Below, one piece after another: positions 42,424 through 64,000 of a stretch of 64,000 bases of DNA (the first letter of the stretch is position 1; every line of letters begins with the position of its first letter). Position numbers and translations under genes: made by a program. The DNA comes from a phage. The notes below the pieces were generated by a model. That model made no database searches. It had not been told where the DNA came from and was given only the letters and a program-made list of their open reading frames with translations. The stretch is from assembly GCA_025832235.1 (NCBI GenBank), contig GCA_025832235.1_3649.1. One strand, 5' to 3'.

Positions 42424-42635
42424 CCTGCCCCGCCGGGAGTCCCGTCATATCTGGCTTTCCAGCAAATATCACACCCACAAATATCATTGCCTGAAGAGGG
42501 TTTCATCCCATAATACATGCCTTACCTGAAGAGCGCTTCATACACCACGTAAATTTTTTAATTGACCTGCAATTTTCCCGTCATGACCCCCTGCCCCGCC
42601 GGAGAGGTTGGCTTTTCCCACACAGACCTGAAGAG
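42424..42635. repeat. imperfect ~110-bp direct repeat pair plus four CCTGAAGAG copies
   Basis: CCTGCCCCGCCGG at 42424 and 42588; CCTGAAGAG at 42076, 42490, 42525, 42627. Confidence 0.6.
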
Positions 42636-43213
42636 TCAGCCAGAAATATCTGAACAGGCCCAATTCTACCACGATTTTGACCTGACCTACAGGAGTGCTG
42701 CCAGGCGGACGAAATGGGAATACTTCTCATTCTTATAACAATTCTCAAATATCAAGGCAGTGAGGCAAATTAATAGGCTAGGCCGTTCACACAGTGGCAC
42801 AACATTTGCAATCTATTTTGTGTGGGGGAATGAGAATACATATCATTGTGAGAACCATTATCATTACGGGCAATTTAACATAATACCCATTATGCGCACC
42901 ACTGGCGATACATACAGGGATTGATAACATGAGTTACTGTTTACGCATATAACAATTATATTTATTACTATTTGTGTGGGATATAGTTAGCAGCCGATAG
43001 ATTAGATATTGACCTGCGGACTTCTGACCGTCTAGACGTCTAAACGCCCACACAGCAAGGGTTATACATACATCGCTGAATGTAAACAGGGCCGCAAAAA
43101 TGCTACCATACCAGTTTGTAAATTTTCAATGCAGCACTTGACAAAGAGGAGAAAAACTTGTCTGACACCTTATACACTTTCGATACAATAACGACTGTTA
43201 TTATTTCATGTTT

Positions 43214-44795: not shown

Positions 44796-45005
44796 GATGT
44801 TTTCCTCTCTTCTGGTTGTTGTGTGGGCACTTTTGCCCCTTCAAGATAATGTTACCCCACCCCCTGGCAGATGTCAACGGTTTTTATAGTTCTTATATGA
44901 CAGGCAGGCCCGGTGATTGTCTCCACCCGTCGCCAGGTGCCTGCCGTGTAATAAGTATAACAAAAAACAGGACCATAGCAAGCCCTGTTTTGTAGTTTAT
45001 AAATA

Positions 45006-45197
45006 TTATATTTTTTCGCCTATGTAGTCCGGTCGGTTTTTCTCTGTCATGCGCTTTAGCAATTCTTGCATGTTACTTATGGCTTGTAGCGTATCCTCTT
45101 CCAGACTTGAATCAACATAATCAGGATCGTCTATAACCTTTCTATGATTATGATAACGCAGTACCGCCAATACCTTTCTAACTTGTTCGGTATTCAT
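45006..45197 (-). CDS. hypothetical protein
   Basis: ORF. Confidence 0.4.
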   Translation of the reverse strand: MNTEQVRKVLAVLRYHNHRKVIDDPDYVDSSLEEDTLQAISNMQELLKRMTEKNRPDYIGEKI

Positions 45198-45346
45198 TTT
45201 TATCGCTCTTTAAAACAAGGTGCCAACCGTTTCCAATAGATCACTGACTATCAGGACAATACTGATCAGCACATACCTAACCATAAAGGGAAAGATCGCC
45301 AACATTGCCGCCACGATTCCCATGGTGATAATTATCTTTCTCATGA

Positions 45347-45631
45347 TTAACGGGTCACGTAAGTTTTCCCGTTTACGGTTATCTGCAGATCCTCCAGGTC
45401 TGGATCTTCTTTAAGGTCGCGAGCAAGCTCACCGCACCGGATACCCTCGAATCCGTAGTACTCTGTTGTACCGTCATTAAAAGTTTTAGCGGCAAGGCAT
45501 AAGCGATAAGTAACCCCGATTTGATTGACGGCATGAATATCCGTTAGATTAACCTCTTTTGCCAGCTCTTTAGCCATTACAGGCGCATTAAGTCCAACAA
45601 CCAGGGCAACCACTGCGATCATCTTTTTCAT
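45347..45631 (-). CDS. secreted small protein with cleavable signal peptide
   Basis: MKKMIAVVALVVGLNAPVMA then mature domain; AGAGGA RBS. Confidence 0.5.
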   Translation of the reverse strand: MKKMIAVVALVVGLNAPVMAKELAKEVNLTDIHAVNQIGVTYRLCLAAKTFNDGTTEYYGFEGIRCGELARDLKEDPDLEDLQITVNGKTYVTR

Positions 45632-45722
45632 TGTGTCTATCCTCTTTCTGCTACGTTTAAGGCGGCGGTAACCGCCTGTTTAAGCTTTGTTGGTTAATTT
45701 TCGGGTATCGGTATAAATTAAA

Positions 45723-45938
45723 CTATGCTGTACGCTCAACTATAACAACGGTTTGGGGGATCTCCCCCTCCACCACTAGTAAGGCCTTTTTCTGCGTGAT
45801 AGATATCTTTACCCGTTGCAGCGTGGCGGTGAAGTCTTTCATTTCGTCACGCGGTGTTTTAGTGCAGTACCAGATCTCAGGCTTGCCGATCTGTAAGTTG
45901 CGTAAAAATTCTGTTTTGCCTGTTTTGTTAGTGATCAT
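45723..45938 (-). CDS. hypothetical protein
   Basis: GGTGAGG RBS. Confidence 0.45.
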   Translation of the reverse strand: MITNKTGKTEFLRNLQIGKPEIWYCTKTPRDEMKDFTATLQRVKISITQKKALLVVEGEIPQTVVIVERTA

Positions 45939-45947
45939 TTGTCAACC

Positions 45948-46052
45948 TCACCCGATACCGTTGGAAGACAAGATCACATTAGCCATGGTTGCAATCAGGC
46001 CAATACCCAGGGCAATAACCAGGATCACCGCATCAATTAATTTCTGTTTCAT
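45948..46052 (-). CDS. 34-aa membrane peptide
   Basis: AGAGGAAAACAAA then ATG; IDAVILVIALGIGLIATMANVIL; below ORF-track cutoff. Confidence 0.4.
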   Translation of the reverse strand: MKQKLIDAVILVIALGIGLIATMANVILSSNGIG

Positions 46053-46142
46053 TTTGTTTTCCTCTTCTTGTTCCAGGTGGCGGACCATTCCACCGCCTTA
46101 TGTATTATGCTTTGTAAGATGGTTGTTTGTTTTCAAACTATT

Positions 46143-46322
46143 TTAACGATAATCATCGTACGCTTTATTAACCTGGCGAATATAACATTCAAAAGCCAGA
46201 TCAATAGATTTATATTCACGGATATACTCACCATAGGAAACCACATACATTTCTATAGCTTCCTCATATGCGAGGAGAATAGAATCCAAGCCTACGATCT
46301 CAGTCTTTGCAATAATAGCCAT
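46143..46322 (-). CDS. 59-aa hypothetical protein
   Basis: AAAGAGGATAAAAATC then ATG; below ORF-track cutoff. Confidence 0.45.
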   Translation of the reverse strand: MAIIAKTEIVGLDSILLAYEEAIEMYVVSYGEYIREYKSIDLAFECYIRQVNKAYDDYR

Positions 46323-46393
46323 GATTTTTATCCTCTTTGTGGTTGGTGGGGCTTGCCCCTTTGATTTATATACTACAGTCTTATATGGTCATG

Positions 46394-46627
46394 TCAACTA
46401 TTTTCAAAAAATTTTTCTGCTGTAATATTTTTCCCGGTAGGGTTCGCTACTTTCAAAATTCTATCATGCACCGGACGCCCAAAAGAATAAGCGCCGTACA
46501 CAGTAAACCAATAATCGCCGTCAGGCTGTACTATTACCGCCGCATATGGTACGCCTTTTTCGTTTTTGCTGACAAAATAGATCACATTGCCATTAATAAC
46601 CTCAGCGCGTTTAATTTGTTCCATCAT
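46394..46627 (-). CDS. hypothetical protein
   Basis: AGAGAGGT RBS; upstream hairpin GGGGCC-GAAAA-GGCCCC. Confidence 0.5.
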   Translation of the reverse strand: MMEQIKRAEVINGNVIYFVSKNEKGVPYAAVIVQPDGDYWFTVYGAYSFGRPVHDRILKVANPTGKNITAEKFFENS

Positions 46628-46681
46628 GATGATTTACCTCTCTTTATTTTCATAATTGGGGCCTTTTCGGCCCCGCCAGGT

Positions 46682-46966
46682 TTATTTATTGATAGCGTGC
46701 AGCGGGAAAGCTACGCCAGGTTGATAGATAACCTTTACAACCTCATCAGGACAAAAGAAATTGCAGAACTCACCGCAATAGGCCTCATCCTCTTTTAATT
46801 CTTCATCAGCATACTCAAAAAAGTAGTCGATGCTTGGATAATCCTGCCCTGGGTTATAGTCAACCATTGTCAAGACCAGTTCAAGATCGTTGCGCAGGAT
46901 ATGCATACCCGCTTTTAAGTATTTTGCTTCCATTTCTACTACATCGCCAGCGGTAACAATAGCCAT
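46682..46966 (-). CDS. hypothetical acidic protein
   Basis: start moved to ATG 46966 after AGGAG. Confidence 0.45.
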   Translation of the reverse strand: MAIVTAGDVVEMEAKYLKAGMHILRNDLELVLTMVDYNPGQDYPSIDYFFEYADEELKEDEAYCGEFCNFFCPDEVVKVIYQPGVAFPLHAINK

Positions 46967-47188
46967 AGTTTTAACTCCTGTTTCTGTTAATGATTGGGGG
47001 CCGCCCCCTGACACGTACTATTATCCATATTGTAGGGCTTGATGCAAGTACTTCTTTAAAAAAATTTTTAAGCGCCTTGGAGGCCGTTGTAACGCCAAAA
47101 TAATAAAGGCCATGCGGTTGCATGGCCTTTATGTGATTATATCGCTGTAGGCCCTGCTAGGGGCCTTATTTTGCATCATTTGCCGGAA

Positions 47189-51247: not shown

Positions 51248-51292
51248 TTTACTTTATTGATGGCCCTGGAGTCAAGGCCATCTAAAAATAAA
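51248..51292 (-). repeat. 45-bp repeat copy 2
   Basis: identical to copy 3; one mismatch to copy 1. Confidence 0.55.
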
Positions 51293-51867: not shown

Positions 51868-51912
51868 TTTACTTTATTGATGGCCCTGGAGTCAAGGCCA
51901 TCTAAAAATAAA
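51868..51912 (-). repeat. 45-bp repeat copy 3
   Basis: TTTACTTTATTGATGGCCCTGGAGTCAAGGCCATCTAAAAATAAA on plus strand. Confidence 0.55.
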
Positions 51913-53066: not shown

Positions 53067-53144
53067 GATTTCTTGTCCTCTCTGTTAATTAGTGGGGTGT
53101 TGTTCACCTTGCGAGAATAAGAATAACAAGAACTGTCCGAGCTG

Positions 53145-53327
53145 TCAACCATTAGTTAAAATTATTTTTTGGGTAGAATTCTCCAGCCGCCGCCCCTGCC
53201 AGGTTAACCACCGTTTTTCGTACTCTTCTTTATGTTCCAACGCTCCCGCCATAGCCTTTTCAACCAGGGCGATAGCCTCAGCGTCATTAATCGCTACATT
53301 TCCCAGGTGAGTAGCATTACCTTTCAT
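53145..53327 (-). CDS. hypothetical protein
   Basis: GAAGAGGAGG RBS; first gene of the small-gene block. Confidence 0.5.
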   Translation of the reverse strand: MKGNATHLGNVAINDAEAIALVEKAMAGALEHKEEYEKRWLTWQGRRLENSTQKIILTNG

Positions 53328-53528
53328 TTTTGTACCTCCTCTTCAATTGTTACCTATCCTATAGCATAGGCCCACCAGGTTTGCAAGCCTTCATTCTCTC
53401 CTACCTGGTCAGTTAGGCCCTGCCAGGCTGGCCCCGCCAGGTTGCAGCGGTCAGCGCATCAGGTTAGAAATTTTTTTTTTTGAAAAGTGTTGACAGCGGC
53501 CCCGCCAGGTGGCAAAATATACCTATCG

Positions 53529-53760
53529 AAAGGACGGCAGGCACCGGTGACGGGGGAGACAACCACCGGGGATGGGCGCTGCATAAAATGAGAACGGTTA
53601 TCATTATCATTTAAAAATTTATGCAAAAAAAAAAATCCTTGCTTTCTTTGTCCTGTGTGATACTATAATAACAAGCCGGGGCAACAGGGGCCGGGAGACA
53701 ATCACCGGGCCTGCCCGTTATTCTGCAAACGAGAATGATTATCATTCAAAATTCTAAATG
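53529..53760. repeat. tandemly duplicated ~90-bp noncoding unit
   Basis: both units contain GGGAGACAA(C/T)CACCGGG and GAGAA(C/T)G(G/A)TTATCATT. Confidence 0.55.
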
Positions 53761-53875
53761 AGAACTCCTCGCATTTAATAAATTTAATTAGCATGCTAAT
53801 TACCTTCCGTAACAATCTCCTATAAAATAGTGCCCCATAAAATATTCCCATATAGAAATTTTAAAAATCCATTTC

Positions 53876-54040
53876 TGAAAACGAAAAATCGATTTCGTCC
53901 CCAAAAATTTCAGGTCGAGAGCTGGAACGATTTCCAGAAAATCCGATTCAGAAAACGAAAAACAGATCGAGTACTGAGAAATTTGTCGAGAAAAATTTTC
54001 AGAAAATCAGGTCTTTGAAATGAAAAACAGATCGAGTACC
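53876..54040. repeat. three A-rich direct repeats GAAAACGAAAAA-CAGATCGAGTAC
   Basis: copies near 53876, 53946 and 54008 at irregular spacing. Confidence 0.5.
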
Positions 54041-54351
54041 GAAAGAGATGTGCCGAAACTTTCTGATAATAATGGACTTATTGTTATAAAAGGTCAGAGG
54101 TAAGCTGGGAAAGTTCTGGTAGAAGGGTGAGAGTATGTGCGGAAAATCTGGAATAGTGACTTAAAGTACGGTGCGAACGATAGAATGAGCAGCACATCTT
54201 ATCGTGCCTGTCTTGAAAAATCCATTTTAGTTTTCGATCCATTTTCTGATTTTCTAAGAATTTTAAAATATCTGGCCCGGTGAAATATCAAAAGGAGGAA
54301 ATCCATTTTAGAAATCCTCCTTACACTTGATATGCCAGGGATTTTCAAGTA

Positions 54352-54681
54352 TCAGCTGTCTTTGTTTTTAGGTTTGTACATGCGCAGAGGTATGGTCTTT
54401 GTAACATTCCATTTCCTCAACCCTTCCCAGCTCCAGTTGTGGGCGTGATACCCGGTTATGCATGCACTGCTGGCGTGATCATAAGCATAAGAGAACGCTA
54501 TGTGCACCAGGTGGGGCCAGTCCTTCCACGGCTGTGGACCGTAAGCCTTTCTCCAACACCGACACAAACTAATTGTCTCAAGAATAGGGAGAATAACAAT
54601 TCCATATACCACCACCAGAATGGTCAGTGCAATGATTGTCAGGAACACATACCCTGCAGTTGAAATGATGATCTCTGTCAT
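54352..54681 (-). CDS. membrane protein
   Basis: N-terminal TM IIISTAGYVFLTIIALTILVVVYGIVILPIL. Confidence 0.5.
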   Translation of the reverse strand: MTEIIISTAGYVFLTIIALTILVVVYGIVILPILETISLCRCWRKAYGPQPWKDWPHLVHIAFSYAYDHASSACITGYHAHNWSWEGLRKWNVTKTIPLRMYKPKNKDS

Positions 54682-63282: not shown

Positions 63283-63558
63283 CAATAGTTCAGGTAGGTC
63301 GTTAAGCTACCCCGCACCATTACGTGCATAGCCATACGTTTTCACGTAGGATCGGACCATCTCATATTCCTATGATAAGCAACCACAGGAATCCTCCCAT
63401 TTCGACCGCACTTGCTGGTCTACTTCCTTTCGGAATGGCCTCTGAGCGTTCGCTCTTTTGAGCGCTTCGTTGCGGATTACCTTGCCATAAGGTTTAGGCT
63501 TCCCGCAGTTAAAGAGGTTATTCGACATAGATTACTCTATGAAGCCACAATGTTATTT
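63283..63558 (-). ncRNA. group I self-splicing intron in DNA polymerase gene (no internal ORF)
   Basis: 5' exon ends CAU, intron ends G; elements ACUGCGGGAAGCC (P), GUAAUCCGCAACG (Q), GUAGACCAGC (R) and GAGAUGGUCCG (S); length restores frame. Confidence 0.7.
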
Positions 63559-64000
63559 ATGGTAATAAATAATACGACGAACACCTTCATCGTACCACCC
63601 ACGCTTCACCATCTGGCGGTGCATGAGTATTCCAACTAAGTCACACAGCGATGCACCACCATTTTGTTGGTATGCATTAAGTAAAGAGTGTTTAGATCTG
63701 GTCCAGATAGCATGACCATCAAAAGAGTAGATAAACTTCTTACCCGTTGCTTCCCAGAATTTCTCCAGATCTTCTTTACGCCCCTTAAGACCAGGGTTGG
63801 CATCCCAGAGTGCATCGATTACCCTTTGTCCCAACTCTGGAGAGATGTCCAGCATATCTGCAACTTTATCTTTTTGTGCCCCATACATAACCCCATACGT
63901 GATAGGTTTACCGTCGTTACGGGAAATCTCCTTGCCTGCTACAGAAGAGTAAGCTTTGGCGTTATTACAGTTACCGCACACTGCCACTTTACCATTCCTT
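63559..64000 (-). CDS. family A DNA polymerase, 5' exon (partial, continues beyond window end)
   Basis: motif B-like region ...AKAYSSV...YGVMYGAQ... and NAYQQNGGASLCDL; ends ...VRRIIYYH at the splice site. Confidence 0.7.

Follow-up and report, generated by a model that had tools for sequence, protein, structure and literature searches.

A conserved gene-free hub of plus-strand promoters, Fur-type palindromes and iteron-like repeats in the early region of rV5-like phages

A gene-free gap in the early gene array

The window analysed here, a 64,000-nucleotide stretch of phage DNA (GenBank assembly GCA_025832235.1, contig GCA_025832235.1_3649.1), comes from an rV5-like E. coli phage of the genus Vequintavirus and contains at 53330-54350 a gene-free stretch, hub 2, that is the subject of this work. 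In a simple map of open reading frames (ORFs), plus-strand genes reach to ca. 41.4 kb and the small early genes of the minus strand run from 64 kb to 44.2 kb, with the two blocks separated by another gene-free, convergent region of ca. 2.8 kb (41.4-44.2 kb; hub 1). Hub 2 is embedded in the minus-strand array of small early genes between two minus-strand genes, 54352-54681 on its right and 53145-53327 on its left, that encode only small hypothetical proteins, and the surrounding DNA (53100-54500) matches 122 phage records at 80-95% identity. Our preferred, still tentative reading is that hub 2 serves as a cis-regulatory hub where several promoters, gated by the host iron sensor Fur, would feed plus-strand transcription into an iteron-like DNA element that is possibly a replication origin. 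Its principal features are as follows:

53466-53518, plus strand: predicted promoter P1, whose -35 TTGACA (53490-53495) follows a T-tract UP-like element and is separated by a GC-rich spacer of 17 nt from the extended -10 TGgCAAAAT (53513-53518)
53526-53585, plus strand: leader 1 (unit 1), a GC-rich stem-loop with GGGAGACAACCACCGGG at 53554-53570
53587-53605: Fur box 1, AATGAGAACGGTTATCATT, matching the E. coli consensus GATAATGATAATCATTATC at 16 of 19 positions in the minus-strand reading (53590-53608)
53614-53666, plus strand: predicted promoter P2, read from the sequence, whose -35 TTGCTT (53639-53644) follows an A-tract UP-like element and is separated by a spacer of 16 nt from the extended -10 TGaTACTAT (53661-53666)
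53674-53722, plus strand: leader 2 (unit 2), a 5'-terminal stem-loop with GGGAGACAATCACCGGG at 53693-53709
53728-53746: Fur box 2, AACGAGAATGATTATCATT, 12 of 14 against the 7-1-7 motif (53730-53744) and 15 of 19 against the 19-bp consensus on the minus strand, counted from the sequence
53757-53775: Fur box 3, AATGAGAACTCCTCGCATT, whose start lies 29 bp from that of box 2
53851-53915, 53925-53989 and 53990-54054: three iteron-like direct repeats of ca. 65 bp with 62-71% identity
54213-54289: inverted copy of the iteron core, with an arm (54246-54264) that is 89% complementary to 53992-54010

Hub 2 is non-coding. ARAGORN found no tRNA or tmRNA in it, and searches of hub 2 and of six relatives' loci against Rfam gave nothing at gathering thresholds and only chance-level matches at E ≤ 5. 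ORFs of 44-62 amino acids exist in the hub; a comparison of 8 close relatives shows them split or shifted, partly via changes in homopolymer length, the variable columns lack an excess at third codon positions (phase counts 27/35/18, 20/14/26 and 18/15/12), and the amino-acid changes would be radical. Broken frames and the absent codon phase thus rule out hidden small proteins, and the statement of an earlier note, made from the bare letters, that this stretch holds neither an RBS-supported ORF nor a tRNA-like sequence is borne out. Public annotations of the hub conflict between records, with different ORFs on different strands. Mutually inconsistent hypothetical ORFs cross it in the loci that we label L288, L292, L005 and L296 as well as in other public records, and one of them, GAP31_043A, has been flagged for its poor ribosome-binding site; annotators are hereby given a reason to drop such spurious calls. 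Some 16 of the records are titled "Campylobacter phage" and are ordinary Vequintavirus genomes.

At the same position within the minus-strand array, a gene-free gap of 800-1250 bp is found in five genera, Vequintavirus, Mydovirus, Seunavirus, Certrevirus and Phapecoctavirus, and these gaps follow a common plan. Plus-strand promoter P1 with a first RNA is followed by P2 and a GC-rich leader with GAGACAAnCACCG; next come an array of 19-bp palindromes, a further promoter (P3) in several genera, three direct repeats, a variable stretch, the inverted copy and AAATATC(A). The block of unit 2 (53629-53787) retains 72-87% identity in Phapecoctavirus (Stephanstirmvirinae), Mydovirus, Seunavirus and Certrevirus, where it is usually unannotated. 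The earlier note had offered a multi-site regulatory region as one possibility, and with plus-strand promoters, three Fur-type palindromes, iterons with their inverted copy and a terminator all kept across genera, this is what the comparison supports.

The same note had placed the start of minus-strand transcription of the small-gene block at the hub, which holds only in part. A separate minus-strand promoter predicted at its left edge (53386-53358) would serve the next gene; minus-strand genes lie on both sides, however, and the upstream operon is predicted to terminate at 54292-54322. The promoter that had been noticed points to the plus strand, i.e., opposite to the claimed direction, and hub 2 is a plus-strand promoter island opposing the flow of the minus-strand early-gene array.

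Duplicated promoter cassettes and their leaders

P1 and P2 fit the sigma-70 type and are predicted as such, with -35 and -10 elements at 16-18 bp spacing that are conserved in relatives. The promoter-like TTGACA singled out earlier is present at 53490 and belongs to P1, which scores 10 of 12 as TTGACA-17-CAAAAT with a TG extension; its -35 does not vary among 18 Vequintavirus genomes, and 18 relatives have CACAAT or CATAAT as their -10. P2, for which TATAAT at 53664-53669 is an alternative -10, is kept in all Vequintavirus genomes, and a homologous P2 was called by the promoter scan in other genera. Homologues of P1, P2 and the third candidate P3 were called at 6, 6 and 13 sites in relatives compared with 2.2, 1.4 and 3.4 in shuffles, and across genera the hexamers of the plus-strand promoters are conserved and their spacers variable. 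Unit 1 is flanked by a T-run (53470-53481) and an A-run (53625-53635) of ca. 11 nt each, which together make up a perfect inverted repeat of 13 nt. The A-run of 17 relatives measures only 5-6 nt and their T-run 6 to 15, which reflects either a homopolymer expansion specific to this genome or sequencing slippage. In other genera, the place of the Vequintavirus A-tract just upstream of the P2 -35 is taken by the direct repeat TGTAAAGAnnTGTAAAGA (GTAAA-N5-GTAAA; L004:1404-1424, L005:1410-1430, L008:1415-1436 and L003:1485-1506), with a spacing that we take to be that of a CpxR-type response-regulator box.

Each of the two promoters heads a cassette that consists of the sigma-70 promoter, a GC-rich 5' stem-loop leader with an invariant GAGACAAYCACCG and a 19-bp palindrome. 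The two diverged copies in hub 2, unit 1 and unit 2, share GGGAGACAAYCACCGGG (53554 and 53693) and a 29-nt block at 76% identity (53593 and 53728) with a period of 135-139 bp. The duplication seen by the earlier note is real, though the copies are diverged paralogues and not a strict tandem, and Tandem Repeats Finder called no tandem repeat on the duplicated unit. The 17-mer GGGAGACAAYCACCGGG occurs 3 times in the window compared with 0.09 expected, with the third occurrence at 44909 on the minus strand, and the motif counts of the duplicated unit, of a GC motif (53369-53514) and of the A-rich repeats all exceed shuffle expectation. No other part of the hub is as conserved as the cassette region, where 78-95% of columns are invariant. 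Three further elements belong to this set:

44887-44968, minus strand: third promoter-plus-leader copy, TTGCTA-16-TATACT followed by GGCAGGC...GGAGACAATCACCGG...GCCTGCC
53785-53802: perfect 18-bp palindrome, TAATTAGCATGCTAATTA, read from the sequence
overlapping 53785-53802: weak candidate promoter P3, TTAGCA-17-AACAAT, read from the sequence and clear only in other genera

The leader stem-loop starts at the predicted transcription start, with the invariant CACCG forming the 3' side of an inner helix and GAGACAA unpaired. Leader 1 has 88-93% invariant columns across 8 Vequintavirus genomes. Leader 2 folds at -27.4 kcal/mol (z -2.56 on the plus strand vs. z -0.61 on the minus strand) and the third copy, which lacks a Fur box and lies upstream of an ordinary early gene, at -23.9 kcal/mol (z -3.11). 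In a set of 13 distinct sequences from other genera, 88.5% of cells in the outer helix can pair compared with 27-58% in slid controls, and many of these cells are G-U combinations that pair on the plus strand only, with ca. 74% pairing if read on the other strand. However, covariation in a trimmed alignment does not exceed shuffles, folding z-scores are weak on both strands (mean -0.64), and RNAalifold on a MAFFT alignment of 22 leaders finds no consensus structure because of indels. An RNA structure of the leader is thus compatible with the data and statistically unsupported.

These observations bear on a proposal of the earlier note, that the region encodes small RNAs. In such a scenario, units 1 and 2 and the 44.9-kb copy would be genes of trans-acting small RNAs with the loop GAGACAAYCACCG as seed or protein-binding motif and with the palindromes as incidental or as 3' structures. 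Each copy does have its own promoter and a 5'-terminal stem-loop whose loop does not vary from genus to genus, the G-U pairs speak for the plus strand, and other genera carry a different, clearly structured RNA in the slot of unit 1. Neither an Rfam family nor an intrinsic terminator after unit 1 or unit 2 was found, though, the mean folding score is similar on the minus strand, and the third copy reads directly into a gene as a 5' untranslated region would. The structure and covariation check across related phages that had been suggested thus shows a pairable helix with shuffle-level covariation, leaving small RNAs plausible but unproven, and as the hub's principal output we consider them unlikely.

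The slot of P1 differs between genera: Vequintavirus has a diverged copy of the unit-2 cassette there and other genera an unrelated RNA of ca. 80 nt with conserved helices. This putative RNA (RNA1), predicted to be transcribed from P1, occurs in Phapecoctavirus, Mydovirus, Seunavirus, Certrevirus and phage W70 with the order CGCCACCCCACGGCG-AAAG-GCGGGGCUAAC-variable hairpin-GGAAGGUGGAUCGCCGGUAG (L003:1396-1484, L004:1326-1419, L008:1337-1430 and 12 other loci). Compensatory changes have occurred in its variable hairpin, and CCCC and GGGG could pair in a pseudoknot (as CCAA and UUGG in Raoultella phage Ro1). RNA1 has no match in Rfam and is absent from the window. The pseudo-ToxI of phage phiTE, itself an rV5-like phage, is a type III antitoxin-like repeat RNA that was considered as a counterpart of the hub and rejected because its locus (106714-106772, between tRNA-Tyr and phiTE_203) lies in the tRNA region and because known ToxI RNAs consist of tandem repeats of ca. 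36 nt, to which the hub's repeats of ca. 65 nt are unrelated.

Promoter-leader combinations are also widespread elsewhere in the early region. On the minus strand at 44800-47020, many early genes share a module of TTGACA-type promoter, short GC hairpin in the 5' untranslated region (e.g., GGGGCAAGCCCC, GGGCACTTTTGCCC and GGGGGCCGCCCCC), ribosome-binding site and small ORF, while the promoters at 51895 and 51275 have an identical 18-nt spacer, CCAGGGCCATCAATAAAG; these modules look like mobile promoter cassettes. One might regard hub 2 as a graveyard of such promoter-stem-loop cassettes and decayed small genes with no dedicated function, similar to the PeSL (promoter-early stem-loop) elements of T4-type phages. 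That the cassette occurs three times in the window, that the cassettes at 51275 and 51895 share their spacer and that the left edge and the variable spacer evolve fast would agree with this idea. Order, motifs and a 29-bp spacing of palindromes are kept across two subfamilies, though, and conservation is higher in the core blocks than in the DNA around them, so that we regard this explanation as highly improbable.

Fur-type palindromes and iteron-like repeats

At the level of sequence, the 19-bp palindromes are Fur operators. The 16/19 consensus match of box 1 (0.04 expected) is nearly invariant in 18 genomes, the site orthologous to box 2 in relatives is exactly AATGAGAATGATT(A/C)TCATT, and the half-sites of box 3 are fixed while its centre varies (CTCC, CTTT or TCCC) among the 18 Vequintavirus genomes. 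The two best matches to the 7-1-7 motif TGATAATnATTATCA in the 64 kb both fall into the two non-coding hubs, and hub 1 has Fur-box-like palindromes at 42713, 42829 and 42847. In relatives, the palindromes form arrays with an exact start-to-start spacing of 29 bp, with four sites in L003, three in L006, L008 and L165 and two in L004 and L005. Mismatches between half-sites are not compensated, which rules out RNA hairpins; conserved half-sites around a free centre instead point to the site of a dimeric DNA-binding protein.

As an independent test, the exact 19-mer of relatives, AATGAGAATNATTMTCATT, was scanned in bacterial genomes, and ORFs of at least 80 amino acids starting within 200 bp were taken. 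The commonest Pfam families among the resulting 120 ORFs were TonB-dependent receptor (11), FUR (6) and Fe3+ binding protein (5), followed by FeoA, Peripla_BP_2 (periplasmic binding proteins of the siderophore type), ZnuA and FecI-like sigma factor (3 each) and FecCD (2). We infer that host Fe2+-Fur occupies the palindromes. A BLAST search of the Fur-box block against E. coli genomes gave no match with this short, low-complexity query, and a scan of viral contigs with an 18-mer returned mostly unrelated contigs. The 18-19-mer of the Fur box was seen in more than 120 unrelated viral contigs (L009-L128) and many environmental contigs, including the metagenome loci L139, L141, L142, L155, L157, L158 and L163, and Fur boxes may be common on other phages or prophages.

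Two other accounts of the palindromes deserve attention. They could be operators of a phage-encoded dimeric regulator, e.g., an early-gene shut-off protein, that merely resemble Fur boxes: The consensus half-site is AATGAGAA and not AATGATAA, the strict 29-bp spacing is unlike host Fur arrays, and the same sites occur in hub 1. Many copies nevertheless agree exactly with Fur half-sites, iron genes across bacteria are preceded by the 19-mer, and phage genera that otherwise share little in their small early genes have kept the motif, all of which makes this account quite unlikely in our view.

Alternatively, the palindromes could act as a decoy that titrates host Fur as the phage copy number rises and thereby derepresses iron uptake and other Fur-repressed functions. 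High-copy Fur boxes do titrate Fur in the FURTA assay, and the phage has at least 6 Fur-type sites per 64 kb that are confined to the two non-coding hubs, do not sit over core promoters and belong to arrays that are kept in phages with hosts from six enterobacterial genera. For titration, however, a handful of sites in each genome would be few, and the fixed position of the sites with respect to P2 and P3 points to local regulation, so that a sponge as the principal role appears improbable to us.

Downstream of the palindromes lies the iteron-like element. Its three A-rich repeats had been described by the earlier note as copies of 25-30 bp; they are indeed there but longer, i.e., units of ca. 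65 nt, and accompanied by an inverted partial copy. Their core, GAAAAyCGAAAAACAGATCGAGTAC, has internal CGAT..ATCG arms and A-tracts, and an 18-mer core is present in two exact copies compared with 0.06 expected. Three copies at 63-78 bp spacing are found in every genus of Vequintavirinae including Mydovirus, Seunavirus and Certrevirus, with a core in relatives (..AATACGATCTCGAAAnnGAAAAAnCGATCGAGAACC) that likewise carries internal inverted arms. The layout of direct repeats plus inverted copy recurs in relatives, where the inverted copy lies 190-280 bp further on. In the window, the region of the inverted copy has 85-93% invariant columns and is followed by two AAATATC motifs (54266-54272 and 54283-54289). 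The iteron block has a GC content of 30-37%, and its relatives' counterparts contain 14-32 GATC sites per kb compared with 6.5-10 per kb in the surrounding locus. We consider a protein-bound cis site most likely for this element, with a transcription-activated replication origin or a site for the control of initiation as our best guess.

The remaining features of the hub lie at its edges and between the repeats:

53358-53386, minus strand: predicted sigma-70-like promoter of the next gene (53145-53327), TTGCAA-17-TATAGG, read from the sequence
53369-53514: copies of the GC motif GGCCC(C/T)GCCAGG(T), one of them inside the P1 spacer and each with CCWGG
54055-54224, plus strand: fast-evolving spacer of constant length, G-skewed, with 38-57% invariant columns and almost no indels
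54070-54088, plus strand: small 5-bp hairpin in the spacer, with pairing in 93% of cells and 10 double-change cells
54280-54322, minus strand: intrinsic-terminator-like hairpin (stem 54292-54322), AAGGAGGA...TCCTCCTT then TTTTGATATTT, read from the sequence

At the right edge, the stem is kept by a compensatory change from G-C to A-T in two relatives and by G-U pairs possible only on the minus strand in others, and the hairpin at 54292-54322 is, as predicted from these features, the terminator of the upstream operon after gene 54352-54681. In the variable spacer, sliding RNAalifold over the hub in 18 Vequintavirus genomes gave no strong consensus except for the 5-bp hairpin, whose score is reached by 0 of 500 shuffles, yet the control slid by -3 is also 87% paired. 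Conservation is lowest at the left edge of the hub (12-55% invariant columns). The spacer of the minus-strand promoter there holds a GGCCCACCAGGT motif (repeat family D2), and the GC motif has 6 matches in the window compared with 0.39 expected. CCWGG, the Dcm site, was observed inside GGCCCCGCCAGGT-like motifs in GC-rich spacers of early promoters, both in the window (53192-53514, 46669 and 54506) and in L003-L008 and L290, and this motif could be an operator of some regulator or a methylation-sensitive feature. Outside the hub, the window contains a group I catalytic intron at 63333-63568 on the minus strand (Rfam RF00028, 64.7 bits, full-length model match).

Interpretation and comparison with known systems

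The reading that we put forward tentatively, a Fur-gated hub with several promoters, would work as follows. Host sigma-70 RNA polymerase would fire from the tandem early promoters P1 and P2, and each transcript would begin with a GC-rich 5' stem-loop of ca. 50 nt with the invariant apical GAGACAAYCACCG before crossing one (unit 1) or two (unit 2) 19-bp Fur-type palindromes. Fur would then gate plus-strand transcription into the downstream element as a roadblock and/or by occluding UP elements, or alternatively by anti-silencing of the AT-rich DNA. Transcripts that pass this gate would oppose the flanking operons and enter the iterons, the variable spacer and the inverted iteron copy. The motifs, their conservation, the absence of a coding signal and the identity of the palindromes with Fur boxes at sequence level are direct observations, whereas Fur occupancy, transcript ends, dependence on iron and the role of the iterons are what we deduce from them.

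Several points weigh against this interpretation. The Fur boxes do not overlap the -35 and -10 elements of the strong plus-strand promoters as classical repression geometry would have it; their positions are about +60 to +110 relative to P1 and P2 and about -55 to -95 relative to the promoter that follows, with the last box ca. 55-65 bp upstream of the P3 start in relatives. Because of these positions away from core promoters, a roadblock, UP-element occlusion or anti-silencing seems likelier than repression at the core promoter. Box 2 does overlap a weak minus-strand TTGAAT-18-CAGAAT that was seen by eye and is below the scan threshold. The 6-bp Fur hexamer does not fit a whole number of times into the 29-bp spacing, the binder could, though improbably, be a phage protein of similar specificity, P3 is weak in the window, and no intrinsic terminator follows either unit. 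In the literature searched, there is also no experiment with any relative that addresses transcription, Fur binding or replication at this locus.

Further objections concern the origin that our reading includes as a possibility and that could also be taken as the hub's main function. An origin of this kind would not exclude Fur gating but promote one of its sub-claims: The iterons would bind a phage initiator, P1-P3 would provide activating transcription or an R-loop primer, and the Fur boxes would be accessory. The layout of three direct repeats and an inverted one across genera, the AT-rich and GATC-dense repeat block, and tandem promoters that point into it with G-rich leaders all argue for this idea, and the origin of rV5 is undefined in the literature, with the rV5 genome paper unable to define it from skew. 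On the other hand, no DnaA or IHF consensus boxes were found in hub 2, no initiator gene is adjacent, GC skew tracks gene orientation only without an inflection at hub 2, and the long repeat units with their irregular 63-78 bp spacing are atypical of plasmid or lambda iterons. Moreover, hub 1 competes with hub 2 for the origin role and is at least as good a candidate. In the related phage Bas54, a ca. 2-kb intergenic region between oppositely transcribed genes was the only one reported free of transposon insertions (preprint 10.1101/2025.11.20.689424), and hub 1 probably corresponds to it. Hub 1 has repeats of its own, with CAAATATCA at 42463, 42478 and 42746, a repeated CCTGAAGAG and two copies of GCCATGCCATTCGTTTGCAT. 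An origin as the main function of hub 2 is, in our view, rather unlikely.

Vequintavirinae and their relatives are widely used in therapy and biocontrol, and their early region is almost entirely unexplained. If Fur gating is true, the arrays would directly link the iron status of the host, a dominant variable in the gut and during infection, to the lytic programme of a virulent phage, which would thus use a host metal-sensing repressor within its developmental circuit. If Fur were instead soaked up as the genome amplifies, host iron uptake would be derepressed for the benefit of the phage's iron-dependent enzymes. The conserved operator sequences suggest that a family of lytic phages may read or manipulate host iron status. 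Lytic phages of the rV5 and phAPEC8 types may even have taken over the iron sensor of their host, a reading that we lean against, with conserved Fur arrays in two non-coding hubs that couple early antisense transcription and possibly origin firing to iron or that soak up Fur.

We found no report of this hub, its RNAs or Fur boxes in non-coding DNA of lytic phages in the literature searched, and nothing specific on an origin, a transcriptome or a Fur link in this phage group. Arrays of Fur boxes are known from enterobacteria, e.g., at the aerobactin promoter or as tandem upstream boxes of ftnA. The hub shares with them AT-rich 19-bp palindromes on the 7-1-7 plan TGA(T/G)AATnATT(A/C)TCA with several sites side by side, but it differs by its location in a lytic phage, the lack of a gene to regulate, the fixed 29-bp spacing and a G for T at one half-site position in about half of its half-sites.

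Origins activated by transcription are known from phages T4 (oriF and oriG) and T7 (the primary origin with promoters 1.1A and 1.1B), and pSC101-type iteron origins mix direct and inverted repeats. Similarly, the promoters of the hub are predicted to fire into an AT-rich, non-coding repeat stretch with three direct copies and an inverted one. Unlike the ca. 20-bp iterons of pSC101-type origins, however, its units measure ca. 65 bp at 63-78 bp spacing and come without DnaA or IHF boxes and without an adjacent initiator gene.

For the cassettes, the closest parallel in layout are the PeSL elements of T4-type phages, where a host-type early promoter is likewise followed by a stem-loop at several places in the early region, but two of the three copies of the hub type precede no gene and are coupled to Fur boxes. 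The put RNAs of phage HK022 resemble the leaders as conserved, possibly structured elements with which the transcripts of several promoters in a single phage begin, though without sequence similarity or evidence of antitermination, and the structure in the hub is statistically unsupported. The parts of hub 2 are thus of known kinds, i.e., sigma-70 promoters, Fur boxes and iteron-like repeats, and what is new is their combination, their conservation in a virulent lineage and the array with its fixed 29-bp spacing.

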